From NCBI GenBank assembly GCA_963776345.1, contig CAVZMH010000016.1:448001-512000 (forward strand): a stretch of DNA of 64,000 nucleotides, written 5' to 3'. A program made the position numbers and the translations under genes. Positions 1 through 14,862 of the stretch are shown piece after piece (the stretch's first letter is position 1; each line of letters opens with the position of its first letter). Source of the stretch: an uncultured delta proteobacterium. GTDB taxonomy: Bacteria > Myxococcota > Myxococcia > Myxococcales > Myxococcaceae. The notes under the pieces are model-generated. The model was not told the origin of the DNA. It did no database searches and worked only from the letters and a program-made list of their open reading frames with translations.

Positions 1-905
1 ACCAGCGGGCTGTTGTCGAGGAAGAAGCCCTGGGTGTTGTAGGCCAGGAGATTCCCGCGCACGGTGACGTTGCCGGACTCCTTCATCCCCAGGCCGATGC
101 CTGCCGCGCCGCGGGAGAAGAGGATCTGGTTGCCCTCGACGAGGAGGTTGCGGCTGTACATGGCGAAGACGCCGACCTCGTTGCCCACGAAGCGGTTCTT
201 TTCCAGCCGGTTGCCATGGCTGTACATGAGATGGACGCCGTAGCGACCGCCGCGCACCTCGTTGCCCCGCAGCACGTTGCGCGACGAGTACCAGACCACG
301 CAGTCGCGGGCCTGCTGGACCTCGTTGTCCTCCACCAGGCTGTCGTTGGTCTCCCAGAGGCGGATGCCGTCTCCTCGCATCCCCAGCGCGGGCCCGCCGA
401 GCCCCACGATCCGGTTTCCGCGCAGAGTCACCCGCTTCGCCTTTTCCACCAGGATGCCGAAGATGCTGTTGAGGATGGTGACCCCCTCGACCCGGACGTC
501 GTCGCCGTGGACCTTGACGGCCGCGTCGAGCACGTCGAAGCGGCCCCCGCTCCCATCGACGGTCACTCCACCGAGCGAGGCGCCGTCCTGGAGGAGCACG
601 GTGGTGCCCGATCCGGCGGTCTTCAGCCGCGAGCGCTCGGTACCCCAGATGCCCACGCCGCGAGGCACCACCACGGAGCCGACCCAGGTACCATCGCCCA
701 GGCAGAGCACCTGACCCGGCGCAGCGTGGTCGAGCGCCGGCTGGAGCGGCTGGTCCGGGGCGACCGGCAGACAGGCCCCGGGCCGGTCCGCGCGCCTCGT
801 GCGCCGCGACGTGGCGGCGAGCTCCGGTGCCCTCGCGCAGGCGAGGAGCGCGAGCACCAGGACGCCGGAGGCGAGCCTCTGGGGCACCGGAGCCATGCCG
901 ATCAC
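1..905 (-). CDS. nosD: Nitrous oxide reductase maturation protein NosD (truncated by window edge)
   Basis: Not in the ORF track because it runs off the window. Translated by hand: GTG at 905 overlaps the nosZ stop (GTGA), with an alternative ATG at 896. Signal/lipobox-like N-terminus (VLVLALLAC), beta-helix repeats and the NosD-like motif RYGVHLMYS at about 219-245. Confidence 0.9.
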   Translation of the reverse strand, partial: MIGMAPVPQRLASGVLVLALLACARAPELAATSRRTRRADRPGACLPVAPDQPLQPALDHAAPGQVLCLGDGTWVGSVVVPRGVGIWGTERSRLKTAGSGTTVLLQDGASLGGVTVDGSGGRFDVLDAAVKVHGDDVRVEGVTILNSIFGILVEKAKRVTLRGNRIVGLGGPALGMRGDGIRLWETNDSLVEDNEVQQARDCVVWYSSRNVLRGNEVRGGRYGVHLMYSHGNRLEKNRFVGNEVGVFAMYSRNLLVEGNQILFSRGAAGIGLGMKESGNVTVRGNLLAYNTQGFFLDNSPL

Positions 906-2884
906 TTCTTCTTGGGCTCGACCAGGAAGTAACCGGCCATCTCGAGGTGCAGCGCGGAGCAGAACTCCGTGCAGTACATCGGGAAGACGCCCGGTCGGTC
1001 GGCGATGAACTCGATCTCGGTGTGCTTGCCCGGCTCGAGCGAGGCGTTGATGTTGTAGGAGTTGAGCGCGAACCCGTGCGTGGCGTCATGCGCCTGCTCG
1101 AGGTTGGTGAGGTGGATCCGCACCTTGTCGCCCTCCTTCACCCGCACCACGTCCGGGGTGAAGTGGCTGCGAATCGCGGTCATGTAGACGTCGACCGAGT
1201 TGCCCTTGCGCTCGACCCGCTCCTTGCCGCCCTCGACCGTGAAGGGGCTCTTCTCCTTGGTGATCGCATCGAGCCCCACCGGCTTGTAGATGTCCCAGGC
1301 CTTGATCTTGTCCGCCTTGATGATCTGCGCGTTGTGCGGCTCGCCCAGGCCGATCGGCAGGTCGTAGAGCAGCTGCATCTTCCCGCCGTTGGTCTCGCCG
1401 GTGAGATCGATCAGCTGGAAGTTCTGGGGGAGCAGTGGGCCGACCGAGTTGAAGCGGTCCAGCGCCCACTTGTTCATCGCCACCAGGTACTTCCCCTTGG
1501 GAGCCACGGTGTCGCCCTCGGCCGCGACCAGGTGGCCGATGTTGTACTGGGTGGAGATCTTCTCGACCAGCTTCAGGTCCTTCACGTTCCACTTCGCGAC
1601 CTTCGTCTCGATGAACAGCGAGGTGTAGGCGTTGCCGTCGCCGTCGAAGGCCGTGTGCAGGGGGCCGAGACCCAGCTCCACCTGCCCGCGGATCGCCTCG
1701 GCGAAGGGGAGAATCGGGACCCCGTAGGGGTCCTTGGCCTCGAACTTCTTCGCCGCGATCAGCGCCTGGATCTTCTTGAAGTTGAAGACGGTGGCGTGGG
1801 TGTCGAGCTTGCCGCTCACCACCAGGTCCTCGCCGTCCGGCGTGACGTCGAGCCCGTGGGGGCTCTTCGGCTCGGGAACGAAGTAGAGGAGCCCCTCCTC
1901 GATGGCCACCTGGAGGGGGATCACCCTCATCCCGGCGATCACCTTGGACTTGGTCTTCGCCACCTCGGCGGCCTTCCGCCAGTTGACGATGTGCATGTAG
2001 TCCATGTCGTTCTGCGAGGCGCCCGACTCCAGCGGGGGGTTGCCCTCCAGCACTCCGCCGGTGGCCCGCTCGGTGTTGATCGAGTTGCAGAACGCCCAGC
2101 CGTCCGAGGTCAGCTTCCCGCTGTCCGCCAGGTCCTGCATGTAGGGCGGGAACTCGATGGCGAACGACTCCTCGGGGATGATCCGCCGCTTGGCGCGGTC
2201 GAAGCGCCAGAAGGTCATCGCCCCCCGGTACTTCTCGTTGTACTCCTTGAGGTCGGCGTAGGCGCCGCCCAGCGGGGCCGCGTACTGCGACGTCTCGATC
2301 ACGTACTCGGTGTTGGGGGTGACGAAGGCACCGCCGTGGTCGGCCTCGATCAGCTTCGACTCGACGATCTGCTCGGTGACGAAGTCCTTGAGGTTGATCA
2401 CCGCGATGCGCGGGTTGGCCTTGTCGTTGACGAAGATGAACTCACCGTCGTACTCGCCCTTGGTCTCGGAGAGCGCGGGGTGGTGCATGTCGCCCCAGGT
2501 GATCGGCTTGCCGTGGCGGTAGCCCTCCTTGAGCACCTCCTGGCTGCCCTTGTCGCCTACGCCGTAGCCCTGCCAGGGCTCGGGAGTGAAGACGGCGACG
2601 TACTTGAGGATGCGCATCGAGGGCACGCCGATCACCAGCAGGTGTCCCGAGTGCCCCCCGGAGGCGAAGAGCAGGAACTCGTCCCTGCGCCCACTGGGGG
2701 TATAGGTCTTCAGCGCGGCGGTGACGTCGGCCTCGGAGAGGTTCCGGTCCTTCATCAGCTTGGACAGGTTGGCCGAGCCGGACGGAGCGGCGCCGGAGGA
2801 CTGTGGAGTCCCCGGGCTCTGGGGTTTGTCGCAGGCGAGGACCAGCGCCAGCGCACATGAGACGAGGATCGCTCGAAGGTTCAT
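902..2884 (-). CDS. nosZ: Nitrous oxide reductase, clade II (Sec-dependent, lipoprotein-like signal)
   Basis: CuZ His motifs DMHH, DHGG, PKSPHG, GPLH, EPH and C-terminal CuA motif HGF...CTEFCSALHLEM. Start placed at ATG 2884 behind GGAGG. Signal MNLRAILVSCALALVLAC has no twin-Arg motif. Confidence 0.96.
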   Translation of the reverse strand: MNLRAILVSCALALVLACDKPQSPGTPQSSGAAPSGSANLSKLMKDRNLSEADVTAALKTYTPSGRRDEFLLFASGGHSGHLLVIGVPSMRILKYVAVFTPEPWQGYGVGDKGSQEVLKEGYRHGKPITWGDMHHPALSETKGEYDGEFIFVNDKANPRIAVINLKDFVTEQIVESKLIEADHGGAFVTPNTEYVIETSQYAAPLGGAYADLKEYNEKYRGAMTFWRFDRAKRRIIPEESFAIEFPPYMQDLADSGKLTSDGWAFCNSINTERATGGVLEGNPPLESGASQNDMDYMHIVNWRKAAEVAKTKSKVIAGMRVIPLQVAIEEGLLYFVPEPKSPHGLDVTPDGEDLVVSGKLDTHATVFNFKKIQALIAAKKFEAKDPYGVPILPFAEAIRGQVELGLGPLHTAFDGDGNAYTSLFIETKVAKWNVKDLKLVEKISTQYNIGHLVAAEGDTVAPKGKYLVAMNKWALDRFNSVGPLLPQNFQLIDLTGETNGGKMQLLYDLPIGLGEPHNAQIIKADKIKAWDIYKPVGLDAITKEKSPFTVEGGKERVERKGNSVDVYMTAIRSHFTPDVVRVKEGDKVRIHLTNLEQAHDATHGFALNSYNINASLEPGKHTEIEFIADRPGVFPMYCTEFCSALHLEMAGYFLVEPKKK

Positions 2885-2923
2885 CGAAGCCTCCTGGGGT
2901 GAATTTCGGACCCCGGGGTCGGC

Positions 2924-2939
2924 TGCCAGCGGCATGCCA
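2924..2939 (-). promoter_or_regulatory. sigma54 (-24/-12) promoter candidate for nosZ
   Basis: Minus strand reads TGGCATGCCGCTGGCA (GG-N10-GC, close to TGGCACG-N4-TTGC), 40 bp upstream of the nosZ start. Confidence 0.7.
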
Positions 2940-2949
2940 TCGGTTGGTC

Positions 2950-2973
2950 TCACTGGAGTTTATACTCCATTGA
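2950..2973. promoter_or_regulatory. Palindromic operator, copy 1 (TCACTGGA-N8-TCCATTGA)
   Basis: Inverted repeat just upstream of the nosZ -24 box. A near-identical copy lies at 3040-3063. Confidence 0.65.
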
Positions 2974-2982
2974 CTATGAAGG

Positions 2983-2999
2983 TGCGCAGATTCTGCGCA
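2983..2999. promoter_or_regulatory. Perfect palindrome TGCGCAGA-T-TCTGCGCA (GCGCA-N5-TGCGC), candidate enhancer-binding protein site
   Basis: 8-1-8 perfect inverted repeat between two divergent sigma54-like promoters. Confidence 0.65.
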
Positions 3000-3039
3000 T
3001 ACGCACCTCTCATGCGCAGGATCTTCTGCTTTGCCAGAC

Positions 3040-3063
3040 TCAATGGATGTTGCTATCCATCGA
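3040..3063. promoter_or_regulatory. Palindromic operator, copy 2 (TCAATGGA-N8-TCCATCGA)
   Basis: Same arms and spacing as 2950-2973, just upstream of the plus-strand -24 box. Confidence 0.65.
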
Positions 3064-3072
3064 GTTGATCGG

Positions 3073-3088
3073 TGGCATGGCGCACGCA
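3073..3088 (+). promoter_or_regulatory. sigma54 promoter candidate for the cytochrome c-fasciclin-RIC operon
   Basis: TGGCATGGCGCACGCA fits GG-N10-GC. Caveat: it is very close to the ATG at 3103 and the AAGGAGG would fall upstream of the predicted start site. Confidence 0.45.
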
Positions 3089-3102
3089 AGGAGGCGCCTC
3101 TC

Positions 3103-3566
3103 ATGAGAATCTCGCTCTCGCTCGCGGCCGCACTCGGGCTCGGACTGGCATTCGGTTGCAGCAAGGAAGGCGGAGGCGGCGCGGCACCCCCGGCCGGCGC
3201 CTCCCAGCCCACGTGGCGGCCCAGCCGCCCGCCCCGGTGACTCCCCCGGGTCCGTCAGCCGAGGACATCAAGGAGGCGGACGAGATCTTCGCCGGCCGCT
3301 GCACTCCCTGTCATGGTCCGAAGGGCCGCGGGGACGGGCCCGCCTCGGCCGGCCTCACCCCGAAGCCTCGCAACTTCACCGACGGGACGTGGCAGGCCAA
3401 GGTGACCGACGAGCACATCGAGAAGATCGTGCTCTACGGGGGCGCGGCGGTGGGCAAGAGCCCCGCGATGCCGCCCAACCCCGACCTCGAGCAGCATCCG
3501 GGCATCATCAAGGGCCTCCGCGCACACATCCGGGGCCTGGGCTCGGCGCCTTCGGCGTCGCGCTGA
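3103..3566 (+). CDS. Mono-haem c-type cytochrome lipoprotein, split by a -1 frameshift near 3213
   Basis: AAGGAGG then ATG 3103 gives a lipoprotein signal (LGLAFGC). The haem domain (CTPCH, distal Met in PAMPP) is in another frame. Adding one G at ACG/GTG (3211-3215) joins them. Confidence 0.85.
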
Positions 3567-3595
3567 GCTGAAGCGAACCACTCACCGGAGGGACC

Positions 3596-4075
3596 ATGAA
3601 GCGCATCCTTTTCGCCGCCTCGCTCGTCGCCCTGACCGCGCATGCGCAGGGCGACGTGAAGGACATCGTGGACATCGCCTCGGCCTCGAAGGACCACACC
3701 ACGCTGGTGACCGCGCTGAAGGCCGCGGACTACGCGACCGCGCTGAAGAACCCCGGCCCGCTCACCGTCTTCGCGCCCACCAACGCCGCGTTCGACAAGC
3801 TGCCCAAGGGCACGGTGGAGGAGCTGCTCAAGCCCGAGAAGAAGGGCGAGCTGGAGAAGCTCCTCCAGTACCACGTGACGCCGTCGGTCTACGAGGTGAA
3901 GTGGCTCAAGGACGGCCAGAAGCTCGGCCAGGTCAGCGGCGGCAAGGTCACCATCGGGGTGAAGAACGGGAAGGTGACGGTCAACGGCGCGAACGTGCTC
4001 GCCTCCATCCGGGCGTCGAACGGCATCGTGCACGTCATCGACGCGGTGCTCATCCCCGAGGCGCCCAAGAAGTAG
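3596..4075 (+). CDS. Fasciclin (FAS1) domain secreted protein
   Basis: Signal peptide; FAS1 motifs TVFAPTNAAF, YHV and NGIVHVID; GGAGG RBS. Confidence 0.93.
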   Translation: MKRILFAASLVALTAHAQGDVKDIVDIASASKDHTTLVTALKAADYATALKNPGPLTVFAPTNAAFDKLPKGTVEELLKPEKKGELEKLLQYHVTPSVYEVKWLKDGQKLGQVSGGKVTIGVKNGKVTVNGANVLASIRASNGIVHVIDAVLIPEAPKK

Positions 4076-4124
4076 CACGAACCGACGGAAGCATCGCCGG
4101 GGCCGCTCCGGCCCCCGAGGAGGA

Positions 4125-4805
4125 TTGGACGTGATCGGGACAGAGCAGACGCTGGGCGAGCTGGCGGTGGCGGTTCCCACCGCCGCCAAGGTCTTCTACC
4201 GATACGGGCTCGATTACTGCTGCGGAGGAAAGCAGTCCCTGGCCGAGGCGTGTGCCCGGGGCGGACTGGACGCCGCCGAGGTGCTCGAGGCCATCCGGGC
4301 GGACCAGGCAGCCCTCGGTCTGCCCGGAGATGGCGGCATCCGCTGGCTCGACCGACCCCTGCCGGAGCTCGTCCAGCACATCCTGGAGCGGTACCACGCG
4401 CCGCTGCGCGACGAGCTCGCCCGGCTCTTGGCGCTCGCACGGAAGGTCGAGCAGGTCCACGCCGGCAAGCAAGGCTGCCCGGTGGGCCTCGCCAAGCACC
4501 TGGCGGCGGTGGGACCATTCGTCGAGGCGCACCTGGCGAAGGAGGAGCAGATCCTGTTCCCGCTCTTCCTCATGGGGCGCGGCCGTCAGGCCACCATGCC
4601 GGTGCAGGTGATGCTGCAGGAGCACGACGACCACGGAGACGCGCTGCGCCGGATCCGCGAGTTGACGAACGATCTCCGGCTGCCGGAGCAGGCGTGCGGG
4701 ACGTGGCGAGAGCTCTACCGGGCGCTCGCCCAGCTCGAGGTGGAGCTGATGGAGCACATCCACCTCGAGAACAACATCCTCTTCCCGCGCGCGCTCGCCG
4801 GCTGA
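4125..4805 (+). CDS. ric: Iron-sulfur cluster repair di-iron protein (RIC/YtfE/ScdA)
   Basis: DYCCGG N-terminal motif; hemerythrin-like ligands HLAKEEQILFP, EHDDH and HIHLENNILF. Start may be GTG 4131. Confidence 0.93.
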   Translation: MDVIGTEQTLGELAVAVPTAAKVFYRYGLDYCCGGKQSLAEACARGGLDAAEVLEAIRADQAALGLPGDGGIRWLDRPLPELVQHILERYHAPLRDELARLLALARKVEQVHAGKQGCPVGLAKHLAAVGPFVEAHLAKEEQILFPLFLMGRGRQATMPVQVMLQEHDDHGDALRRIRELTNDLRLPEQACGTWRELYRALAQLEVELMEHIHLENNILFPRALAG

Positions 4806-4821
4806 GCCGCCCCCTCGGCGC

Positions 4822-5547
4822 TCATCGCCGCGGGCCTCGAGCCGGGCGCCTGGCCGGACCGGCCTCGAACGCTCGCCCGGGGCGCGCGGGTGGTCGTGGG
4901 TACCCGACGGTCTGGGCGAAGAGCACGCGCTCCTTCCCCCCGAGCCCGAGCTCGCGGGCCATCGCGTCTCGCTGGCAGTTGTGGAACCACGCGGCGAGCC
5001 CGGCCGCGGCCGCGAAGAGGTAGACGTTGGCGGCGATCATCCCCGTGTCCACGAAGTAATACGAGCGCTGCACCCCGGGATCATGGAGCCCCGGCTCCTC
5101 GAAGCCCGAGGTGTGCTCCAGCCGGTCGAGGTCGACCACGAAGACCAGGCGAACCGGAGCCGTCGCGCCGAGGAGCCCCTGGCCCGGGTTGAGCCCGAGG
5201 TGCCGCAGGTCCCGCGCCACGACCGGCAGCAGCCGGTGACGGCGAGCGTCGTAGAGAGACGCTCCGTCGGCTCGGAGCACGTACAGGTCGATCTCCTGCG
5301 AGTTGCTCGCCGAGGCCGCGGTCCTCCCCACCGTCCCGAAGGGGCCCCGGCGCCGGTTCACGCCCCACGCGGCCCAGAGCAGCGCGGACAGGACCGAGGG
5401 TGGGAGCGGCCGTTCGGAGATCTCCCGGATGGTCCTCCGCGCGCGCAGTGCCGAGGCCAGCGGCGCACTCGGCGGCAACACCGGCCGCGGCAGCCGGAGC
5501 ACGGTCGGCAGCAGTCTCCCGGGCACTCGCGACGGTCGTCGGGTCAT
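4822..5547 (-). CDS. Nitroreductase-family (SagB-like) FMN oxidoreductase
   Basis: RRTIRE, RTAASASNSQEIDLY and DTGMIAANVYL motifs; ATG 5547 with GAGGAGG RBS. Confidence 0.85.
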   Translation of the reverse strand: MTRRPSRVPGRLLPTVLRLPRPVLPPSAPLASALRARRTIREISERPLPPSVLSALLWAAWGVNRRRGPFGTVGRTAASASNSQEIDLYVLRADGASLYDARRHRLLPVVARDLRHLGLNPGQGLLGATAPVRLVFVVDLDRLEHTSGFEEPGLHDPGVQRSYYFVDTGMIAANVYLFAAAAGLAAWFHNCQRDAMARELGLGGKERVLFAQTVGYPRPPARPGRAFEAGPARRPARGPRR

Positions 5548-5581
5548 GATCTTCCTCCTCGCGTCACGTAGGCTCGCTCCC

Positions 5582-6316
5582 GTGCGGCTCGCCGTCATCT
5601 CCGACATCCACGGGAACATCTGGGCGCTCCAGGCGGTGCTCGGCCGGATCGCCGAGCTCGGGGACATCGACCGGCTGGTCATCGCGGGCGACCTGCTCTC
5701 CGGCCCGCTCGAGCCGTCCGAGACCGCGGACCTCCTGAGGTCGCTCGACGCCGCCGTCATCCGCGGCAACCACGAGCGCCAGCTCCTGGCCTGCGCCGAG
5801 GCTCCCGGGGGGGCGAGCGACCAGTACGCCTTCGAGCACACCACCGAGGCGCAGCGGGCCTGGCTCGCCACCCTGCCGGCGACGCTCGAGCTCGCGCCCG
5901 ACGTGCTGGTCTGTCATGGGACCCCGGAGACCGATCAGGTCTACCTCTGCGAGGATCTCGACGGACCGGTCAGGCTCGCCGCGGACCAGACCATCGTCGA
6001 ACGGCTCGGCGGCGCACGCCACGCGCTCGTCCTCTCCGGACACTCGCACCACCCACGCACGGTGCAACTCTCGAGCGGGCAGCTGGTGGTGAACGCCGGC
6101 AGCGTCGGCCTGCAGGCCTTCACCGCGGAGCTGCCGAGCCCCCATCACGTGGAGAACGGCTCCCCGCACGCGCGCTTCGTGGTCTGCGAGCGGACGCCGA
6201 GGGGCTGGCAGGCCGAGCAGCATCAGATCTCCTACGACTGGGCCGCCGCCTCCGAGGCCGCGGCCGCGCACGGTCGGCCGGCCTGGGCGCGCTGGCTCCG
6301 GGCCGGGCGCCTCTGA
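5582..6316 (+). CDS. Calcineurin-like metallophosphoesterase
   Basis: SDIHGN, GD, RGNHE, HG and GHSH motifs; start set at GTG 5582. Confidence 0.9.
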   Translation: MRLAVISDIHGNIWALQAVLGRIAELGDIDRLVIAGDLLSGPLEPSETADLLRSLDAAVIRGNHERQLLACAEAPGGASDQYAFEHTTEAQRAWLATLPATLELAPDVLVCHGTPETDQVYLCEDLDGPVRLAADQTIVERLGGARHALVLSGHSHHPRTVQLSSGQLVVNAGSVGLQAFTAELPSPHHVENGSPHARFVVCERTPRGWQAEQHQISYDWAAASEAAAAHGRPAWARWLRAGRL

Positions 6317-6332
6317 GCGCACGGGTCGGCGC

Positions 6333-7823
6333 TCAGGCCGGACGCACGTCGAACACGTGGTGCCCGGCGGCGTCGATGTCGAGGTACAGCCCGGGGCCAG
6401 CGAGCTCGCCGCCGTCGCGCTCGTAGCGGGCCTCGCCCAGGAGATCGGCCAGCAGCACCCGCCCTGCCCCCAGACCGGAGAACGCCGCGTCGACCCGGCA
6501 CTGCCCACGGGTCGGGCCCAGGTTGGCGCAGGCGAGCAGCCGGCCCGAGGGGCCCTCCCAGGACATGGCGACGAATCCTCCGGAGGTGGGATTTCCATCC
6601 CACGCCGGGCGGCACTCCCGCAGCCGCCAGGCGCCCTGGTGGGTCTCCGGCCGGCGGAGCACCGCCAGGAGCCGCTGGTAGAAGGCGCGGAGCGCGGCGT
6701 CCACCGGCTCGTCCGGGCGGCGACCCAGGTGCATCGAGACGTGGACCTTCCGCCCTTCCATCTGACCCTCGTGGAAGAAGCGCAGCCCCGGGGCGAGGAA
6801 GGTGACCACCGCCGCCGCGCGGTGGCGGTCGGGCGGGAAGGTCGCCGCGGCGCGCGGCTCGTCGTGGTTCTCCAGGAAGCGGGCCAGTCGGTCCTGGAAC
6901 GCCAGATCCGCGTGGAGGTGGCCGCGCACGCCCGCCACGTCCCCTGCGCGAAGACGATCATAGAGGCGCTTGTCGTAGGTGAAGTCGAAGCCCTGCTGCT
7001 GCAGCTCCCACTCCAGGTCCCAGTACACCTCGGCCATCAGCACGAAGCCCGGGTGCTCGGTCCGGACCGCCGCTGCAGCCTCCCGCCAGAACGAGCCCGT
7101 GGCCGGTGGCGCTCCGTCCCGGGGCCGCACCCGGTCTCCCCAGGTGCGGGCGAAGACGTCCGGGAGGATCAGCATCGCCATGTCGCAGCGCACGCCGTCG
7201 CAGCGGGCAGCCACGCGGCGCAGCTCGGCGATCATCGCCGCGCGCAGGCCCGGGTGTCCGTAGTTGAGCTGGACGGTGTCCGGCCAGCCGGGGAAGTACG
7301 GATCCCGCCCGTGGGCCAGCACCCGCTGGGCGGACCGGAACCAGTTCTGCGGCTCACGGGCGAGGTCCTGCTCCGTCCCCTCGATCAGCCACTCCGGATG
7401 CTCGCGCACCCACGGATGGTCGGGGGCCATGTGGTTGGGAACGAAGTCCAGCATCAGGGCGAGCCCCCGCTGGGCGAGCCGCTGCCGGAGCCGCTGGAGC
7501 GCGCCGTCCCCGCCGAACTCCGGCTTCACCTCGTAGCTCTGGATGGCGAACGGAGATCCGGTGATGTCCTCGTCGCGGAGGTCGGGGAGGTCGCGCCGGA
7601 ACCCGTCCCTCCAGTCCGCACGGGCGAGCGACACCGCCCGGGCGGCCGGTCCGGTGCGCCACACGCCGAGCGGCCAGAACCAGTCGAAGCCGCGTCCGGC
7701 CACCTCGTCGAGGAAGGCATCCGACACGTCGTCCAGCGTCGCTGGACGCCCCCGGCTGCGACCGAGCTCGCCCAGCAGGACCCGGGTGTTGACCTGGAAG
7801 AGGAGGGGGTGTCTTCGAGGCAC
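6333..7823 (-). CDS. Cytoplasmic alpha-amylase family (GH13) glycosidase
   Basis: DFVPNH, DGVRCDMA, AEVYW and FLENHDE conserved regions. This is the C-terminal part of track ORF 6333..10172; GTG 7823 overlaps the upstream stop (TAGTG). Confidence 0.9.
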   Translation of the reverse strand: MPRRHPLLFQVNTRVLLGELGRSRGRPATLDDVSDAFLDEVAGRGFDWFWPLGVWRTGPAARAVSLARADWRDGFRRDLPDLRDEDITGSPFAIQSYEVKPEFGGDGALQRLRQRLAQRGLALMLDFVPNHMAPDHPWVREHPEWLIEGTEQDLAREPQNWFRSAQRVLAHGRDPYFPGWPDTVQLNYGHPGLRAAMIAELRRVAARCDGVRCDMAMLILPDVFARTWGDRVRPRDGAPPATGSFWREAAAAVRTEHPGFVLMAEVYWDLEWELQQQGFDFTYDKRLYDRLRAGDVAGVRGHLHADLAFQDRLARFLENHDEPRAAATFPPDRHRAAAVVTFLAPGLRFFHEGQMEGRKVHVSMHLGRRPDEPVDAALRAFYQRLLAVLRRPETHQGAWRLRECRPAWDGNPTSGGFVAMSWEGPSGRLLACANLGPTRGQCRVDAAFSGLGAGRVLLADLLGEARYERDGGELAGPGLYLDIDAAGHHVFDVRPA

Positions 7824-8728
7824 TACGGCGTGACCGCCTTCCAGCTGTCGTCGGGGTCGTAGGCCTTGAGGGCCGCGGCGGCCTGCGCGGTCTTCGACCC
7901 GAGGTCCTTCTGGAAGACCACCCCGGCCTGGTTCACCACGAAGGTCATCACGCCGGACTTCCCGTACGACGCCGGATAGGCGACGAGCGCGAAGCCGCGG
8001 GTGAGCTTCCCGCCCTCTCGGTAGTCCAGCGCGCCACCCTCGGCGTGCGGGCCCTGCGCGGTGAGGATCCGGAAGTAGTAGCCGCGGTATGGCGTGCGCT
8101 GGCCGTGCTTCGGTGCGTAACCCTCGCGGACGGCCCCGCTCACCGCCGGCCCCATCGGGCTCTCCGGCTCGCCCTGGGTCGTCTTCCAGTAGAGCCCGTC
8201 GCGCTTGCCGGGCGAGCTCATGAGCCGGTCCGCGTAGTGCGGCACGCTCGCACCCTCGCTGTTCCGCGCGAGGTAGTCCCGCTGCGCGCCCACGTAGCCG
8301 AGGCAGACCTGGATCGCGTCCAGCTCGTTCTGGCCCACCCGCCGGGCGAGGATCTCCTCCTGACCCGCCTTGGTGTCGAAGGTCCAGCCCGCCGTCCCCT
8401 TCACCAGGGGGACGGGGAAGGGCCACCCGTCGTCGCCGACGACCAGCGTCCGGGTCCTCTCGTCCGGCGAAGACAGCGTGTGGGTCCGGTCGTACAGCTC
8501 GACGAAGCGGCGGAGGGTGGCGCGATCGGCCACTGCATCGCCGGAGACGAGGACGGACCTCGACGGCTCGCCCATGACCGCGACCACGGCCTGGACCTCG
8601 CCGGAGCGCGCTGCCTCGACGAGCGCGTCGATGGCGGCCTCCGGGTTCGCGTACGTCCTGACGGCCGCGGCGAGCACCGGGCTCGCGAGGAGCAGGAGGA
8701 AGCAAACTGTCGTGCGTCGAAGGGTCAT
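7823..8728 (-). CDS. DUF2950 family exported protein
   Basis: Signal peptide; WPFPVPLVK, RRVGQNE, DGLYW, PYRGYYFRIL and YGKSGVMTF motifs; usual partner of DUF3300. Confidence 0.88.
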   Translation of the reverse strand: MTLRRTTVCFLLLLASPVLAAAVRTYANPEAAIDALVEAARSGEVQAVVAVMGEPSRSVLVSGDAVADRATLRRFVELYDRTHTLSSPDERTRTLVVGDDGWPFPVPLVKGTAGWTFDTKAGQEEILARRVGQNELDAIQVCLGYVGAQRDYLARNSEGASVPHYADRLMSSPGKRDGLYWKTTQGEPESPMGPAVSGAVREGYAPKHGQRTPYRGYYFRILTAQGPHAEGGALDYREGGKLTRGFALVAYPASYGKSGVMTFVVNQAGVVFQKDLGSKTAQAAAALKAYDPDDSWKAVTP

Positions 8729-8734
8729 GATCGC

Positions 8735-10117
8735 TCAGCGCCTCCCGCCGCCACCGCGCCCACCACCGCCCCGGCTCGCCGTGCCCCGGCTGCTGGCGGC
8801 GCGGGTCTGGGGCCCGCTGCCCATGCCGCCAAACGCCGGACCGGAAGGCGCGGGCTTCGCCGAGGGTGCGCCCCAGCCGCGGTCGCCGCCGCCGCCGCCG
8901 CCGCCGTAGCCGCCTCCCGGCGACGGGGGGGTGCTCGGCATCCCGGTCGACGGCCGCGGCCCTCCAGCTCCGGCGCCTGGAGCTCCGCCGCCCGCCGGAA
9001 GCTGGCTCGGCGCTGCGGGACCTCCCGGCCGGGCTCCGGGACTCCCCGCCCCGCCGCCCGCCGGAAGCTGGCTCGGCGTTCCGGGCCCTCCCGGCCGCGC
9101 TCCGGGGCCTCCCGGCCCCCCCGGACCTCCGACACCGCCAGGGCTTCCCGGCCCTCCGACTCCTCCGACTCCTCCCGGCCCTCCGACTCCTCCGGGTCCG
9201 CCCGGGCCTCCGACGCCGCCTGGCCCGCCGGGGCCCCCTGGGCCTCCGACACCTCCGGGCGGTCGTCCTCCCCCGCCTGGCGGACGCGGCGGGTACGGTG
9301 GCCGCGGCGGGTACGGCGGATAGGGCGGGTAGCGCCAGTAGCTCGACCCGATGGCGAACCCGATGCTGAAGCTCAGCACCGCGCCACCCATGGCGTACCC
9401 GGGCGGGTAGATCGGCGGCGGCGGGTACGCGGGGTACGCCCAGGTCCCGTAGACCACCGTCGGGCTGTAGACCGGCACGTAGACCACCTCGGGCTGCGCG
9501 GGCTCGATGCGGATGATGGTCGTGCCCTCGCTGCCTTGCGCCGCGGCCTGCTCGACCTTCACCGTCTGCTGCGACGAGGACTTGAGGTTCCCGGCCTCCA
9601 TGGCCCGGGCACGGAGCTGCTGGACGGCGAAGAGCACCGAGTCCTTCTGGGTCCGGTACGCGGTGCCGAGATCGCGCGCCCAGTCCTGGTGCTCGCTCAG
9701 CATCTTGAGGACGTCGGGGAGCGCGGAGAGCGCCTTCACGCTCCCGTCCCACGACTTGTCCTTCAGGGCCGCCTCCAGGTCCTTTCCCGACAGGCTGGGG
9801 TGCGCCTTGAGGAACGCCGCCGCGTCGGCGACCTCCTTCGGACGGAGCGACGCCTCGAGCACCTGCCCGAGCAACGGATCCGGGAAGAGCGCGATGGGCG
9901 AGACGATGGCCTCGAGCGCCTCGGGGGCGAACCCTCCCTCGGTGGCGGGGGGAGCAGCCGGCGCTGCGGACGGGCCCGGCGCCGGTGCTGCGGGAGCTGC
10001 CGGCGCGGGGGCAGGCGCCGCCGCTGCGGGCTGCGCCGTGCCCTGGGCCTGGCTCGCCGAGGAACCGGCGCATGCAGAGACCATCGAGGCGACGAGGAGG
10101 GACCGCCCGAGCGTCAT
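8735..10117 (-). CDS. DUF3300 domain protein with Gly/Pro-rich tail
   Basis: PIALFPDPLLGQVL, WDGSVKAL and VVYVPVYSP motifs; signal-like N-terminus from ATG 10117. Confidence 0.88.
   Translation of the reverse strand: MTLGRSLLVASMVSACAGSSASQAQGTAQPAAAAPAPAPAAPAAPAPGPSAAPAAPPATEGGFAPEALEAIVSPIALFPDPLLGQVLEASLRPKEVADAAAFLKAHPSLSGKDLEAALKDKSWDGSVKALSALPDVLKMLSEHQDWARDLGTAYRTQKDSVLFAVQQLRARAMEAGNLKSSSQQTVKVEQAAAQGSEGTTIIRIEPAQPEVVYVPVYSPTVVYGTWAYPAYPPPPIYPPGYAMGGAVLSFSIGFAIGSSYWRYPPYPPYPPRPPYPPRPPGGGGRPPGGVGGPGGPGGPGGVGGPGGPGGVGGPGGVGGVGGPGSPGGVGGPGGPGGPGARPGGPGTPSQLPAGGGAGSPGARPGGPAAPSQLPAGGGAPGAGAGGPRPSTGMPSTPPSPGGGYGGGGGGGDRGWGAPSAKPAPSGPAFGGMGSGPQTRAASSRGTASRGGGGRGGGGRR
8985..9260 (-). repeat. 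Intragenic tandem repeats (GGPGG/GGV units and a ~66-bp duplication encoding PSQLPAGGG)
   Basis: Visible in DNA (ccggaagctggctcggcg twice, 66 bp apart) and in the protein. Confidence 0.8.
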
Positions 10118-10205
10118 GGCCGCACTCTGCCAGGAACACCCCGGGGCGGGTCGACGAAGCACATGGGACCAAGGTGCAACACAGGGTCCCCGACCCCGAG
10201 CCGCC

Positions 10206-11093
10206 CTAGCGCGCGATGGCCACCCTCGGAGACGCGGGCGCCGCCTCCTGGACGCAGGCATGGTCCGCGTTGGACCACTGCTTCTGCAGCTGCCACCGGG
10301 TGCCGCCGAGGGCGACGCAGCTGCCGAACCTCCAGTTGCACTTGTCGGCGATCTCGTCCCCCGAGCGGTCCAGCCAGCCGTTCCCGTCCGGGTCAGTGAG
10401 CATCTCCATCACCTCGTGGGCCGTGACGTTGGCCAGCGCGCGCGTGGCCGGGCCGAGGCCGTTGCAGCGGAAGAGGTCTCCCGGATCGCACTGCGGCGCG
10501 CTGGCCATGTTCGGCAGGTAGGCCACGTGGATGCGGCGCCCGTCGGGACAGCGTCCGCCGTCGTGCCAGGCGCAGAAGTTCGACGGCTCGGGGAAGCCGT
10601 CGGTGAAGACCAGGTACAGCGCCGTCGGGCTCGGCACCTGGCGCGCGTCGGCCAGCACCTGGCACACCTTGGCCACGATCTCCTCCGTCGATGGCGAGTG
10701 GGTCGGCGAGGGCGAGGTCTCCATCAGGTGGCCGAGGAAGGTCGTCCGCGCCGGCCGGCGCACGTACTGGTCGACGATGGCCAGGTAGCGGGAGCCGTCC
10801 AGGCCGGAGAGGAAGGTGTCCATCCCCGACATCGCGTCGGCAGGGAACCGGGACGCGTCACCCCACCAGATGGCGTAGACGGGCGCCTCGGGGATGACGG
10901 CGCCCCCGAGGTCCTCGAGGTCGTCGGACGACCACCGCGCGGCGCCGGCCCGGCGGGTGGCCATGATCGACGTGTGGCCCGCGGGAGCGACCGGGGTCTC
11001 CGCGACGAGCGGCTCGCGGGGATCCCACCCCGCGGCGCCGAGACAGCCGCAGAGCCCGAGCGAGGCGACCAGGAGGTAGATGGAAGCGCGCAC
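10206..11093 (-). CDS. Lipoprotein with PHI-1/EXORDIUM-like domain
   Basis: Lipobox-like LGLCGC; motifs VYAIWWG, FCAWH, AHEVMEMLTDP, GW...EIADKC and LQKQWSN. Start set at GTG 11093. Confidence 0.7.
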   Translation of the reverse strand: MRASIYLLVASLGLCGCLGAAGWDPREPLVAETPVAPAGHTSIMATRRAGAARWSSDDLEDLGGAVIPEAPVYAIWWGDASRFPADAMSGMDTFLSGLDGSRYLAIVDQYVRRPARTTFLGHLMETSPSPTHSPSTEEIVAKVCQVLADARQVPSPTALYLVFTDGFPEPSNFCAWHDGGRCPDGRRIHVAYLPNMASAPQCDPGDLFRCNGLGPATRALANVTAHEVMEMLTDPDGNGWLDRSGDEIADKCNWRFGSCVALGGTRWQLQKQWSNADHACVQEAAPASPRVAIAR

Positions 11094-11229
11094 CGGACGG
11101 CCCTCCACGAGTGCTCTCCCCGGCCGGATCTCGACCCAGGGGCGCACCAGCGTCAAGGAGCAGCCCGCGGCCGGGCGTCGGACCGCCGGCGCCGACCGGT
11201 TGTGCAACGCTCCGGCGTCGCGAGGGGTC

Positions 11230-11541
11230 TCAGCCCTTCGCAGCGAGCACGTCGTGCTTCTCGATCCGCGGCGGCTCGGCCAGCAACTCCGGCGCCTTCG
11301 CCATCAGGGCGGCGGCGACGCGTCCAGAGAGATGCGCCTGTCGGCCCTCCTCCCCGGCGAAGGTGTCGAAGATGGCGAACGTCCGTCGGTCGAAGCGGAT
11401 CGCGTACCACTGCAAGGTGCCCGGCTCGTCCTGCACCAGCGCCAGGCCCGCGCGGAGGAAGTCCTCCACCGCGCGCTCCTTGCCCTCCTTCGCCACGAGC
11501 CGGACGAACAGCCCCATCTTCACGCTGGCCTGAGCTCCCAT
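11230..11541 (-). CDS. Antibiotic biosynthesis monooxygenase (ABM)/quinol monooxygenase family
   Basis: EPGTLQWYA, FAIFDTF and GRQAHL; about 100 aa; AAGGA RBS. Confidence 0.85.
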   Translation of the reverse strand: MGAQASVKMGLFVRLVAKEGKERAVEDFLRAGLALVQDEPGTLQWYAIRFDRRTFAIFDTFAGEEGRQAHLSGRVAAALMAKAPELLAEPPRIEKHDVLAAKG

Positions 11542-11710
11542 CGAGACGTTCCTTTCGACGCTGGCCACCGCAGGACGGACCAGCTTCTCAGGGAGATGCA
11601 CCACCGCCGTCCTCGTTGCAGGCGCGCGCGAGGGACGGCCACCCGGGGGCACGGCCGGCCGGGAATCCGGCCATCTGCAGCGCTCGGTGGTCGACAGGAA
11701 CTGCGGGGGC

Positions 11711-11986
11711 TCAGCGGAAGCCGGCCGGACACTCCCGGCGCACCAGGGCCTTGGCCTGCTCCTGGCTCGCCGGGCGGAAGCCGCGGCGCTGGTACTTCTC
11801 GAGCTCTTCCTCCGGGAACCTCACCACCATCCCCGCCGGGTCCACGGCGAAGTACATCGACTCGTACTTCTCCTTCGGACACGGCTCGGCGCCCTTGGTC
11901 TGCCCGGAGGCCTCCGAGCAGCCGGACAGCGGCAGCGCCGCGAGCGCAGCGAGGAGAACGAGCGAGCGACCTGGACGCGACGTCAT
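11711..11986 (-). CDS. Small hypothetical lipoprotein
   Basis: Lipobox LSGC after a hydrophobic stretch; two further Cys; charged, protein-like composition. Confidence 0.6.
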   Translation of the reverse strand: MTSRPGRSLVLLAALAALPLSGCSEASGQTKGAEPCPKEKYESMYFAVDPAGMVVRFPEEELEKYQRRGFRPASQEQAKALVRRECPAGFR

Positions 11987-12365
11987 GACCATCACCGAAG
12001 CGTACGGGGCCGCCCTGCTGTGCGTGCAACGGAGGGTCATGTCCGCCGCGGTCGTGGGTGCGCGCAGATCTGCGCGGGGTCGAGAAAGCACCACGGTCGA
12101 ACCGCGCCCTCGGATAAGAGGACCGGCTCTCTCCGGAGGTCTCCTCGCCGATGAAGCGCCGCGCCCGCCGGCGAGGCGCTGCCGCGCGGACCTCCATTCC
12201 CCCGCGGCGAACCGCGCCTTTCATGCAGGAAGCGGAGACGCGTGGAGCTGGACTCCAGCCAACGGGCTCGCCCGTGCAGCCGCGTTCCTCCGGATGCGCG
12301 ATGAGCGGACGTACAACGGCACATCACTCCGTCGCTGCGGCGGCACACGCCGCGGGAGATCTCCG

Positions 12366-13815
12366 ATGCGCGCTCGACATCTGCTTCCACCGCTGCTCCT
12401 GCTCCCGGCGCTGGCCCTCGCGGCCGAGGGTGCGCCGGCGACCGTCCCCATCACCACCTCCTCCCCCGAGGCCCGGGCCCTGTACCTCGAGGGCCGGGAT
12501 CTGGTGGAGCGCCTCAAGGGCACCGAGGGTCACCTCCGCACCGACCAGGCGGTGAAGAAGGACCCGCAGTTCGCCCTGGGGTGGCTGCAGTGGGCCCAGA
12601 CGGCGGGGACGGCCAAGGAGTTCTTCGCCGGGCTGGACAGGGCGGTGGCCGCTGCCGGCCACGCCACCGAGGGCGAGCAACTCCTGATCCGCGCGGTCGA
12701 GGCGGGCGCCAAGTCCCGTACCGCCGAGCAGAACCAGCTCCTGGCCACGCTGGCGAAGAAGTTCCCCTTGGATCCGCGGGTCCACGCCCAGATCGGAAAC
12801 GTGGCCTTCGGCGGCCAGGACTGGGACCGCGTCGTCCACGAAATGACCCGCGCGACCGAGCTCGACCCGAAGTTCACCCTCCCCTACAATCAGCTGGGCT
12901 ACGCCTACCGCTTCCAGGGCAAGTACGCGGAGGCCGAGAAGGCGTTCCAGAAGTACGCCGAGCTGCTCCCCGACGACCCGAACCCCCACGACTCCTACGC
13001 CGAGCTCCTGATGCGGATGGGCCGCTTCGACGACTCCATCTCCCGCTACCGGAAGGCGCTGCAGATCGACCCGCTCTTCCTCTCGGCCTACGTGGGCATC
13101 GCCAACGACCAGATCCTGCTCGGCAAGGGCGACGAGGCGCGGGGCACGCTGAAGCAGATGCTGGGCAAGGCACGGACGGACGGAGAGAGGCGCTTGACCT
13201 GGTTCTGGACCGCCGAGTCCTACATGCACGAGGAGCGCTGGACCGACGCCATCCGCAGCCTGGAGGAGGAGAAGAAGATCGCCGATGCCGCCGGTGACGT
13301 GATCTCGGCGTCCCAGGACGTGAACTTCATCGGGAACCTCCTCCTCGGGCGCGGGGAAGCCGGCCGACGCCGCGCGACGGTTCGAGGAGAGCGTCCGGAT
13401 GGCGGAGGGCTCGAAGGCCTCCGACGCCGTCAAGGACACCGCCCGCCGCGGGCACCTCTTCGACATGGCCCGCGTGGCGCTGCTGAAGGGCGACCTGACC
13501 ACGGCGCGGGCCACCGCCGCCAAGTACGCCGCGGCGGTCGAGGCGAAGGCGGTCCCCTTCGAGGTCCGGCAGTCGCACGAGCTGGCCGGGATGATCGCCG
13601 TCCAGGCGAAGGAGTGGGACGCCGCGCTGGCCGAGCTGGGCAAGGCGGGACAGCAAAACCCGCGGGTGCTCTACTTCACCGGCCTCGCCTGGCAGGGCAA
13701 GGGCGACTCGGCGAAGGCGACGGACGCCTTCCGTGCCGCCGCGGAGCTCAACCAGCTACACCCGGTCTACGGCTTCATCCGGCCGCAGGCGCGCCGGCAG
13801 CTCGCGCGGAGCTGA
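12366..13815 (+). CDS. Secreted TPR protein, split by a +1 frameshift at about 13347-13350
   Basis: GGGAG RBS, signal peptide and TTSSPEARALY followed by TPR helices. The frame of track ORF 9507..13955 turns to nonsense after NLLLG and the TPR pattern continues in the frame of ORF 13399..13815. Confidence 0.85.
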
Positions 13816-13878: not shown

Positions 13879-14724
13879 TCAGGGCTTCTCGATCGGCGCG
13901 CCGATCAGGTTGCCGTACTCGGTCCAGCTGCCGTCGTAGTTCTTCACGTCCTTGAACCCGAGCAGGTACTTGAGGACGAACCAGGTGTGGCTGCTGCGCT
14001 CGCCGATCCGGCAGTAGGCGATGGTCGCCTTCTTCGGGTCGAGGCGCTTCTGGTCCAGGTAGATGGCCCGGAGCTCGTCGGCGCTCTTGAAGGTGTTCTC
14101 GTTGGTGACCGCGATGCTCCAGGGAATGCTGGTGGCGCCCGGGACATGCCCCCCGCGCTGGGCGGTCTCGGTCATCCCCGGCGGGGCGATGACCTTGCCG
14201 GTGAACTCGTCGGGGCTGCGGACGTCCACCAGCGGCGCCTTCTTCTCGCTCGCTGCGAGGACCTCCGGCACCTTGGCCCGGAGCGAAGTGTCCACCGAGG
14301 CCGCCTTGTACTGGCTGCGGGGGAACTTCTGGACCTCGGTGGTGAGCGGGGCGTTGTCCTCGTTCAGCCACTTGGCGCGCCCGCCGTTCAGCAGCCGGAC
14401 GTCCTTGTGCCCGTAGATCTTGTAGAGCCAGAACCCGTAGGCGGCGAACCAGTTGCTCGCGTCGCCGTAGATGACCACGGTGTCGGAGTTCTTGATGCCG
14501 GCCTCCGAGTTCAGCTTCTCGAAATCTTCCTTGGAGATGATGTCGCGCTTCACCTGGTCGTTGAGCTGGGTGGTCCAGTCCCAGCCCACCGCCCCGGCGA
14601 TGTGACCCGCGGCGTAGAGCTTCGGGTCCACGTCCACCTCGACGATGCGGACGTTGGGGGTCTTGAGGTTCTGCTTCAGCCAGTCGGTGGTGACGAGGAC
14701 CTCGGGATGTGCGTAGTCGGCCAT
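13879..14724 (-). CDS. Tandem-domain rhodanese / thiosulfate sulfurtransferase (SseA/CysA type)
   Basis: GHIAGA, DVRSPDEF, GGHVPGA, active loop YCRIGERSS and NYDGSWTEY; GAGAGGAG RBS. Confidence 0.95.
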   Translation of the reverse strand: MADYAHPEVLVTTDWLKQNLKTPNVRIVEVDVDPKLYAAGHIAGAVGWDWTTQLNDQVKRDIISKEDFEKLNSEAGIKNSDTVVIYGDASNWFAAYGFWLYKIYGHKDVRLLNGGRAKWLNEDNAPLTTEVQKFPRSQYKAASVDTSLRAKVPEVLAASEKKAPLVDVRSPDEFTGKVIAPPGMTETAQRGGHVPGATSIPWSIAVTNENTFKSADELRAIYLDQKRLDPKKATIAYCRIGERSSHTWFVLKYLLGFKDVKNYDGSWTEYGNLIGAPIEKP

Positions 14725-14763
14725 GATGGTGCTCCTCTCGTTCCTTGGTGAGACGGGTGGATG

Positions 14764-14862
14764 TCAGCCCCGGTGGCGGCGGCCGCGACAACAGATCGCA
14801 GCCCCGGACAGGGGTGCAGATCGGGTCGGCGGTCGGGCAGTCATGGGCTCACACACCTCCAT
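14764..14862 (-). CDS. Candidate intercistronic Cys-containing leader sORF (MEVCEPMTARPPTRSAPLSGAAICCRGRRHRG)
   Basis: ATG overlaps the cysteine synthase stop (TGATG). A second ATG at 14844 has GGAGG upstream. Contains tandem TGT TGT and ends 40 nt before the rhodanese start. Confidence 0.45.
   Translation of the reverse strand: MEVCEPMTARPPTRSAPLSGAAICCRGRRHRG

Follow-up and report, generated by a model that had tools for sequence, protein, structure and literature searches.

Organization of the nosZ Locus

The region under study is the intergenic stretch at positions 2885–3102 of the window, by which we mean the whole 64,000-nt stretch of DNA that was analyzed. It lies between nosZ on the minus strand and an operon on the plus strand that encodes a cytochrome c, a fasciclin-domain protein, and RIC/YtfE. 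The features are listed below.

1–905, minus strand: nosD, 5′ part (TIGR04247/PF05048)
902–2884, minus strand: nosZ, Sec-dependent (clade II) nitrous-oxide reductase (TIGR04246, 836 bits; cut-off 625)
2924–2939, minus strand: sigma54 −24/−12 box of the nos operon, GG at 2938–2937 and GC at 2926–2925, predicted +1 at about 2913 (from sequence)
2950–2973, no strand: operator 1, predicted Rrf2 site, spanning roughly −37 to −60 of the nos promoter (from sequence and matrix; conserved in G058, L228, and L230)
2984–2998, no strand: NmpR-type enhancer site GCGCA-GATTC-TGCGC, a perfect match, at 45 nt from the GG on the nos side (consensus of PMC11841059)
3014–3028, no strand: partial second NmpR-type site GCGCA-GGATC-TTCTG, one half degenerate (from sequence; inverted repeat I9)
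3040–3063, no strand: operator 2, predicted Rrf2 site, spanning roughly −59 to −36 of the cytochrome c/RIC promoter (kept, though with substitutions, in G058, L228, and L230)
3073–3088, plus strand: sigma54 −24/−12 box of the cytochrome c-fasciclin-RIC operon, predicted +1 at about 3099 (from sequence; conserved in G058 and L228)
3103–3566, plus strand: monoheme cytochrome c, predicted to have a lipoprotein-type signal, with a frameshift near 3212 (PF00034)
3596–4075, plus strand: fasciclin-domain secreted protein (PF02469)
4125–4805, plus strand: RIC/YtfE iron-sulfur cluster repair di-iron protein (NF008221, 257 bits, cut-off 254; TIGR03652 over its cut-off)
G000:C16:443971–444405, minus strand: rrf2, last gene of the nos operon, outside the window (TIGR00738, 98.2 bits; cut-off 73.3)

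The region possesses a two-fold symmetry about position 3006, with the GG pairs, the operators, and the central elements (the enhancer halves) all placed as mirror images. An earlier sequence-only reading of this DNA had described a nitrous oxide reductase and a cytochrome/NO-stress operon on its two sides, a pair of outward-facing GG-N10-GC boxes, two matching 24-base palindromes about 10 bp upstream of the boxes, and an enhancer beyond the palindromes. The flanking genes are confirmed by matches to TIGR04246, PF00034, PF02469, and NF008221/TIGR03652, the boxes were found at 2939–2924 (minus) and 3073–3088 (plus) and the palindromes at 2950–2973 and 3040–3063, and the enhancer can now be equated with the NmpR-type site, of a kind already described, at 2984–2998. 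Neither this central site nor the rrf2 gene of the nos operon was part of the sequence-only reading.

Beyond the window the nos operon continues from nosZ through nosD, nosF, nosL, and nosY to a membrane protein, a hypothetical protein, and finally rrf2, and its open reading frames down to rrf2 abut or are no more than 22 bp apart. The rrf2 gene closes the nos operon in G058 as well.

The cytochrome c reading frame is interrupted near 3212, where the contigs of three related runs have one extra base; the frame is open in L230. The nosD gene is also frameshifted just outside the window, at about G000:C16:447862. At both positions a one-base difference is seen in contigs of related runs from soil and wetland, nosD is intact in G058, and more single-base indels surround nosF/nosL. 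The cytochrome c and nosD frameshifts are probably assembly errors. Elsewhere in the window, a rhodanese-like sulfurtransferase and a cysteine-synthase-like gene (minus strand, 13879–15827) were annotated by eye.

The Paired Palindromes

Operator 1 reads TCACTGGA-GTTTATAC-TCCATTGA and operator 2 reads TCAATGGA-TGTTGCTA-TCCATCGA. The gaps from the palindromes to the GG of the boxes are 11 nt on the nos side and 10 nt on the cytochrome side. When up to 2 mismatches are allowed, the palindrome matches twice within the window, versus 0 in 100 dinucleotide shuffles; this control, like the shuffles for the TGGCATG box below, is generous because each of the two patterns was derived from the very sites that it matches. 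Across the 5.1-Mb genome the two window sites alone are 1 mismatch away from a perfect palindrome, and the next four are at 3. A matrix constructed from 44 sites of other genomes, with the consensus TCAATRGA(C/T)-N6-(G/A)TCYATTGA, ranks the window sites first and second genome-wide (28.3 and 28.2 bits; next, 17.4 bits), a ranking that is partly circular because the training sites were chosen by their likeness to the same consensus. The third-best match (17.4 bits) lies in AT-rich sequence on the downstream side of an nrfA fragment, the fourth-best match lies in 23S rRNA (by reading of the sequence), and the matrix scan returned no convincing further target in this genome.

FNR/DNR, HcpR, NorR, and NsrR boxes were considered for the palindrome and rejected, since it departs from their consensus sequences in PMC1274295; the sequence-only reading had likewise set it apart from FNR/DNR, NorR, and NsrR. 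The Crp/Fnr boxes TTGAT-N4-ATCAA, TTGAC-N4-GTCAA, and TGTGA-N6-TCACA fit neither the sites nor the matrix. A description of the operator and its regulator was not found in the literature searched; RegPrecise, subscription papers, and supplements were outside the scope of that search and could hold the motif.

A metagenome scan for the enhancer together with the operator gave 5 matches, 3 of which are the same nos region in relatives, with the double operator, and 2 of which look like chance. In the most divergent of the three contigs (L228), both operators are kept with new spacers, and the nos-side gap from operator to GG is 22 nt rather than 11 nt, or one helical turn more, which argues that the operator needs no contact with the polymerase. 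The layout enhancer, 10 or 11 nt, operator, 10 or 12 nt, GG was also found in G058 and at the nirK promoters of G008, G074, and G054, which belong to another genus.

Predicted Sigma54 Promoters

The nos-side box, TGGCATGCCGCTGGCA (2939–2924, minus strand), and the cytochrome-side box, TGGCATGGCGCACGCA (3073–3088, plus strand), both begin with TGGCA, contain GG-N10-GC, and conform to the sequence of a sigma54 promoter. Positions −14/−15 of both deviate from TT, as they do in other nosZ boxes of the family. The box TGGCATG-N6-GCA has 2 matches in the window versus a mean of 0.05 in shuffles. A sigma54 box was found upstream of nosZ at 20 of 29 loci of the family, counting the window's own locus and leaving out one short locus, versus 2.6% of shuffles. 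No promoter came out of a sigma70/terminator scan of the locus.

The predicted leader on the cytochrome side is only about 4 nt long, and the sequence AGGAGG at 3089–3094 lies before the predicted +1 at about 3099. A start at this position would leave the AGGAGG untranscribed, and this counts against the model. Short leaders are maybe normal here, because an ATG lies 13–16 nt past the GC at three nosZ promoters of the family (L012, L014, and L016) too.

A divergent twin-sigma54 layout at nosZ, devoid of operators, was observed in other genera (L006, L012, L014, L016, L017, and L018). The frequent ATG at 13–16 nt past the GC of such twin promoters suggests that their sigma54 transcripts may be near-leaderless. 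Many nosZ promoters of the family that lack the Rrf2 operator contain a GTTTCA-N3-TGAAAC palindrome within the 330 nt upstream of nosZ (L010, L011, L020–L022, L024, L025, and L027–L032). At 13 of the 29 loci, a gene for a sigma54 activator (with a Fis-type GRTTLWRK helix) on the same strand ends just upstream of nosZ. The activator and the palindrome may constitute a dedicated nos activator with its own site.

The NmpR-Type Enhancer

NmpR is the low-oxygen sigma54 activator of Myxococcus xanthus, and its site, GCGCA-N5-TGCGC, usually occurs in pairs that are 14–15 nt apart (PMC11841059). The bound M. xanthus sites all have the TGC core. By the rule given in the same article, a second site must be 14–15 nt away with at most 2 mismatches and an intact GCA-N5-TGC, and the first site must be no more than 500 bp from a sigma54 box. 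The site at 2984–2998 is a perfect match near a sigma54 box and thus has the makings of an NmpR-regulated promoter site. The second site, at 3014–3028, lies 15 nt from the first and 45 nt from the cytochrome-side GG, a spacing that matches that of bound promoters. It fails the second-site rule, with 3 mismatches and no TGC core, and is more decayed in L228.

Perfect NmpR sites number 50 in this GC-rich genome, so it is the position of the site that carries weight and not the match alone. An NmpR-like site in combination with a sigma54 box was found at 11 of the 29 family nosZ loci (the same set as above) versus 0 of 1450 mononucleotide shuffles. The other pairs of NmpR-like sites and sigma54 boxes are 32–85 nt apart and have no operator.

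The sole protoglobin kinase of the genome is encoded at C18:51063–55119, together with a receiver-kinase and a divergent NtrC-like regulator, and the gene order is the one reported for Anaeromyxobacter. The kinase and the divergent regulator occupy C18:51860–55119, and the NmpR assignment is by gene order. The larger segment G000:C18:49861–55119, which also includes a universal stress protein, is likely the Nmp locus. From the arrangement of sites we consider NmpR to be the probable activator of both promoters. Targets named in PMC11841059 include the cbb3 oxidase, hemN, hemerythrin, a universal stress protein, pilR, and the nmp genes; the words "Nitrous" and "Rrf2" do not occur in its main text, where the targets in anaerobic myxobacteria are stated to be unknown.

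The Rrf2 Protein Encoded by the nos Operon

The protein encoded by the last gene of the operon was found to belong to the Rrf2 superfamily (TIGR00738, 98.2 bits, cut-off 73.3; PF02082, 98.3 bits, cut-off 30), and databases name it generically as Rrf2. Its AlphaFold model (pLDDT 83) has the winged helix and the long C-terminal dimerization helix of the fold, and the best Foldseek matches of the model are RsrR, CymR, IscR, and NsrR. The protein scores below the cut-offs of the equivalog models for NsrR (NF008240, 45.5 bits versus 182) and IscR (TIGR02010, 60.1 bits versus 207.55), and the cut-offs for RirA and CymR were likewise not reached.

Close orthologues (E below 1e-33) were found in 14 of 151 genomes of the family. 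Residues C91, C98, C104, and H107 are invariant in all 14, giving an invariant ligand pattern of Cys-x6-Cys-x5-Cys-x2-His. Position 8, the equivalent of Asp8 in NsrR, is Gln here; among the 14 orthologues, 11 have Glu there, 2 have Gln, and 1 has Val. On the features of NsrR membership that were tested, the protein appears to be one that works like NsrR and yet is no member of that group.

Co-occurrence of the Motif and the Rrf2 Clade

Tandem palindromes are present just upstream of rrf2, divergent from an operon of the heme-copper-oxidase type, at 6 of the 14 orthologue loci; 1 of the others has a palindrome downstream and 7 have none within 1.5 kb. In a genome-wide scan at no more than 1 mismatch, the motif was found in 13 of the 14 genomes with an orthologue versus 34 of the 137 others, and the reversed control was found in 6 of 151. 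Exact matches to the degenerate pattern occur in 7 of the 14 genomes with the orthologue versus 2 of the 137 without it, and one of those two is inside an open reading frame. One locus (L005) has a 23.5-bit match upstream of nosZ though no orthologue was found in its genome.

The analysis was extended to Rrf2 loci from GTDB with a fixed consensus at no more than 2 mismatches. A site was found at 18 of the 40 closest loci (12 of 33 when 7 re-finds are left out), whereas all 40 of the more distant loci and all 80 resampled sequences lacked one; the other 22 close loci have no site at this threshold. These co-occurrence counts overstate the significance because kin are not independent. Whole-genome scans of five genomes from other phyla were informative in three; one of the five gave no match, and in one AT-rich genome the control pattern had 8 matches versus 4 for the motif.

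In a tree of 89 rows and 136 columns, with 7 duplicates left out, the motif-bearing Rrf2 proteins form one clade (100/97; 48 of the 89 rows). The clade takes in Balneolota, Rhodothermota, Bdellovibrionota, and Geobacteraceae and excludes the two other Rrf2 paralogues of this genome. In a sister clade from Gemmatimonadota (23 loci examined, L160–L196), many loci have a different, AT-rich palindrome that resembles TATCAT-N4-ATGATA, located 30–100 nt upstream of rrf2; some of these loci are beside nosZ. The operator and the regulator therefore change together, as the different palindrome of the sister clade occupies the equivalent place. The sequence-only reading had proposed a single regulator for both sites. 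This is very likely, and from the position of rrf2 in the operon and the co-occurrence with the clade, the palindromes are most probably bound by the product of rrf2, the last gene of that operon.

Predicted Regulon Across Genomes

Sites precede nirK in L099, L101, and L149 (TIGR02376 over its cut-off), the nos operon in G024, G074 (azurin-nosZ), and L127 (norQD-nosZ, TAT type), and norCB genes of the cNOR type with the HLWVEG motif in L127, L134, and L155. Genes for NnrS and hemerythrins also lie downstream of sites. Heme-copper oxidases in which GHx(S/A)QQ replaces the cross-linked Tyr were found at 14 of 27 loci scanned; the GHxSQQ oxidases are presumably eNOR-like. Together the targets comprise RIC, nirK, norCB-type genes, nosZ, NnrS, and hemerythrins, the content of an NsrR-like regulon. 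No linkage to isc/suf of the IscR type was apparent, as the annotated neighbors and the strong targets are respiratory. A DUF1858/FeS_assembly_P cluster contains two weaker sites (L103 and L110).

Two further observations were made at these loci. A degenerate COX1-like membrane protein of about 470 residues (L116:5175–6620, with homologues in L117, L118, L122, L137, L140, L146, L149, and L200) stands before the CuA subunit and the GHxSQQ oxidase in most such operons. In the deltaproteobacterial L127:1000–5900, a TAT-type (clade I-like) nosZ, interrupted in the assembly, is located behind norQ-norD and adjoins norCB and rrf2.

The sequence-only reading had made conservation upstream of orthologous nosZ genes a touchstone, and as a general rule for clade II nosZ this does not hold: 28 of 29 other nosZ loci, scanned within 1.5 kb, have no clear operator. 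The one that does is from the same genus, and there is one more weak match; among the loci counted as negative is one from the unpublished genome G049. Extended nosZ upstream regions of G029, G098, G035, G057, G013, G090, and G086 contained no operator. The operator precedes nos in 4 of the 12 genomes that have both nosZ and the Rrf2 orthologue, one locus of which ends at a contig edge. The motif scan that had been suggested as a check did reveal clustering at nitrogen-oxide and respiratory genes in related genomes; within this genome no convincing further target was obtained. The motif appears to be that of an Rrf2 denitrification/NO regulon that took in nosZ in some lineages, and the control of nosZ is lineage-specific.

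One locus departs from this pattern. In L153 (Bdellovibrionota, 2070–12805), four operators flank rrf2, a cbb3 oxidase, hemN, and a heavy-metal P-type ATPase. Because sites precede the cbb3 oxidase and hemN, the L153 regulon looks like a regulon for O2 rather than for NO. Its target set resembles that of NmpR in M. xanthus, and control of the microaerobic regulon may have passed to Rrf2 in this genome.

In the genome under study nrfA is present, and nirK, nirS, and NOR were not found with the queries used (genome 98% complete); NO would therefore come from nitrite chemistry, NrfA, or neighbors. At G000:C14:115567–120852, nrfA is followed by a partial second copy of nrfA and an AT-rich insertion. 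Judged from its gene content, the organism seems to reduce N2O without being a denitrifier, and it would read NO as a sign that denitrification is going on nearby.

Proposed Mechanism and Alternatives

The arrangement of sites points, with somewhat better than even confidence, to a symmetric pair of sigma54 promoters that share an NmpR-type enhancer and carry operators for an Fe-S Rrf2 protein, which would repress both until a signal, probably NO, is received. In the first step, low O2 would act through the protoglobin kinase NmpU to switch on NmpR. Dimers of holo-Rrf2 would occupy the gap of about 45 bp between the enhancer and the −24 element and thereby block contact between NmpR and sigma54. 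NO or oxidative damage to the cluster would then free the DNA, and nos and RIC would be expressed together. Induction of the nos operon would in turn make more Rrf2 repressor, a negative feedback on nos because rrf2 is the last gene of the operon. The whole would operate as an AND gate for low O2 (through NmpR) and a second signal (release of Rrf2).

That Rrf2 acts by repression rather than by activation is rather likely. In the tandem pairs proximal to rrf2, TTGAC is embedded at a fixed offset in one operator in 9 of 12, and a −10-like hexamer follows 16–18 nt after the TTGAC, at or just before the second operator, in 8 of 11 pairs scanned (for example, TTGACA-N17-TACATT in L150). The geometry is that of a repressor, because the tandem operators cover these sigma70-like −35/−10 elements, and holo-Rrf2 proteins generally repress (PMC11672702). 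NO is, by a modest preference, our candidate for the releasing signal, because the targets include RIC, nirK, cNOR-type norCB, NnrS, and hemerythrins.

A less probable reading keeps the same operators and enhancer and lets the Rrf2 cluster sense O2, redox state, or the supply of iron or Fe-S clusters, in the manner of IscR, RirA, or RsrR, so that transcription would be doubly locked to anoxia or cofactor availability. The pattern Cys-x6-Cys-x5-Cys-x2-His does resemble the Cys3His ligands of IscR, the sites in L153 precede a cbb3 oxidase, hemN, and a heavy-metal P-type ATPase, and this genome yielded no NO-producing reductase. However, most targets are nitrogen-oxide genes (nirK, norCB, nosZ, NnrS, and RIC), isc/suf genes are absent among the strong targets examined, and a second O2 sensor would be redundant since NmpR already provides the O2 input. 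For these reasons we regard this reading as unlikely.

Bending proteins at sigma54 promoters usually bind where the operator lies here. The Rrf2 dimer could accordingly be imagined as a co-activator that bends the 45-bp segment as IHF does while it still represses sigma70-type promoters. The constant gap of 10–11 nt between enhancer and operator (nos and nirK) and the shift of the operator-GG gap by one helical turn in L228 are compatible with such a role, and apo-IscR is able to activate (PMC11672702). Most nosZ promoters of the family, however, consist of NmpR-like sites and sigma54 boxes with no operator. Since NmpR-like/sigma54 pairs occur at similar distances without it, the operator appears to be an added brake and not a needed bending aid. 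The operator also lies elsewhere over −35/−10-like elements, repression is the general mode of holo-Rrf2 proteins (PMC11672702), and a co-activator is accordingly improbable.

It is very improbable that the palindromes bind another factor, such as a Crp/Fnr protein or a sigma54 activator, and that rrf2 merely travels with respiratory operons. Two Crp-HTH proteins over the Pfam cut-off are encoded in the genome, but the geometry of Crp/Fnr boxes does not fit, and the motif goes with the Rrf2 clade in different phyla and gene neighborhoods, lies directly upstream of rrf2, and changes when the clade changes. That the symmetry of enhancer halves, operators, and boxes about 3006 is a relic of a local inverted promoter duplication, with one or both palindromes functionless, is extremely unlikely, because the arms are kept while operator spacers and flanks differ between the halves and both operators persist in G058 and L228 with other spacers and flanks.

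Beyond the preferred reading of an NO-released Rrf2 repressor at this locus, a wider proposal is offered tentatively, as one that may well prove wrong. The protein would represent an Rrf2 subfamily not described before, which has a 24-bp operator of its own, serving as a master switch for denitrification/NO in Myxococcota and others, and in myxobacteria as an anti-activator between the NmpR enhancer and the polymerase. Its scope would include nirK, the cNOR and non-tyrosine heme-copper NO reductases, nosZ, and RIC, and members in Balneolota, Rhodothermota, Bdellovibrionota, and Geobacteraceae. If this proposal is true, the consumption of N2O by this non-denitrifier needs hypoxia plus NO from its neighbors.

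Carriers of clade II nosZ that have no nitrite reductase are sinks for N2O, and their nos switch is poorly known. The locus offers named parts for such a switch: a regulator, an operator, an activator site, and a predicted AND logic. The NmpR regulon would extend to nosZ and nirK, and repression by an Rrf2 protein placed between enhancer and sigma54 would be unusual for this family. With the motif one can predict which genomes couple nosZ to NO; they are a minority of those examined.

Comparison with Known Systems

The closest comparison is with NsrR, the NO-sensing [4Fe-4S] Rrf2 repressor of E. coli, Bacillus, Streptomyces, and Nitrosomonas. The two have in common the Rrf2 fold, three Cys residues in the linker, a palindromic operator, and a regulon with ytfE/RIC, nirK, and NO-handling genes. 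The NsrR operator is gATGyAT-N5-ATrCATc (PMC1274295), whereas the operator here is an even 24-bp palindrome, TCAATRGA-N8-TCYATTGA. The cluster of NsrR is held by three Cys and Asp8 (PMC9218516); here Gln or Glu replaces Asp at position 8, and an extra invariant His follows the third Cys. In addition, the operators here are found at predicted sigma54 promoters beside an enhancer.

With IscR, a [2Fe-2S] protein, the Cys3-His pattern is shared. The Cys spacing here is x6/x5, the first being one residue longer than in E. coli IscR, and respiratory and nitrogen-oxide genes take the place of isc/suf among the targets. RsrR resembles the present system in that full operators lie in tandem in the interval separating the regulator from a divergent gene. 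It differs in its ligands (Glu, His, and two Cys) and in its 11-3-11 (25-bp) site (PMC5015018), compared with Cys3-His and a 24-bp operator here.

The NmpRSTU regulon of M. xanthus shares with this locus GCGCA-N5-TGCGC upstream of a sigma54 box, a second site 15 nt off, and, elsewhere in the genome, a protoglobin kinase with a divergent regulator. The second site is degenerate here, and nosZ is not among the M. xanthus targets listed above (PMC11841059). Rrf2 genes have been reported as enriched in scaffolds with clade II nos (PMC6264515). The queries in that article were flavobacterial, and its passages on these genes give no operator, regulon, or mechanism. The presence of Rrf2 near clade II nos was thus already known, and what is particular here is the predicted coupling of Rrf2 operators to NmpR at sigma54 promoters.
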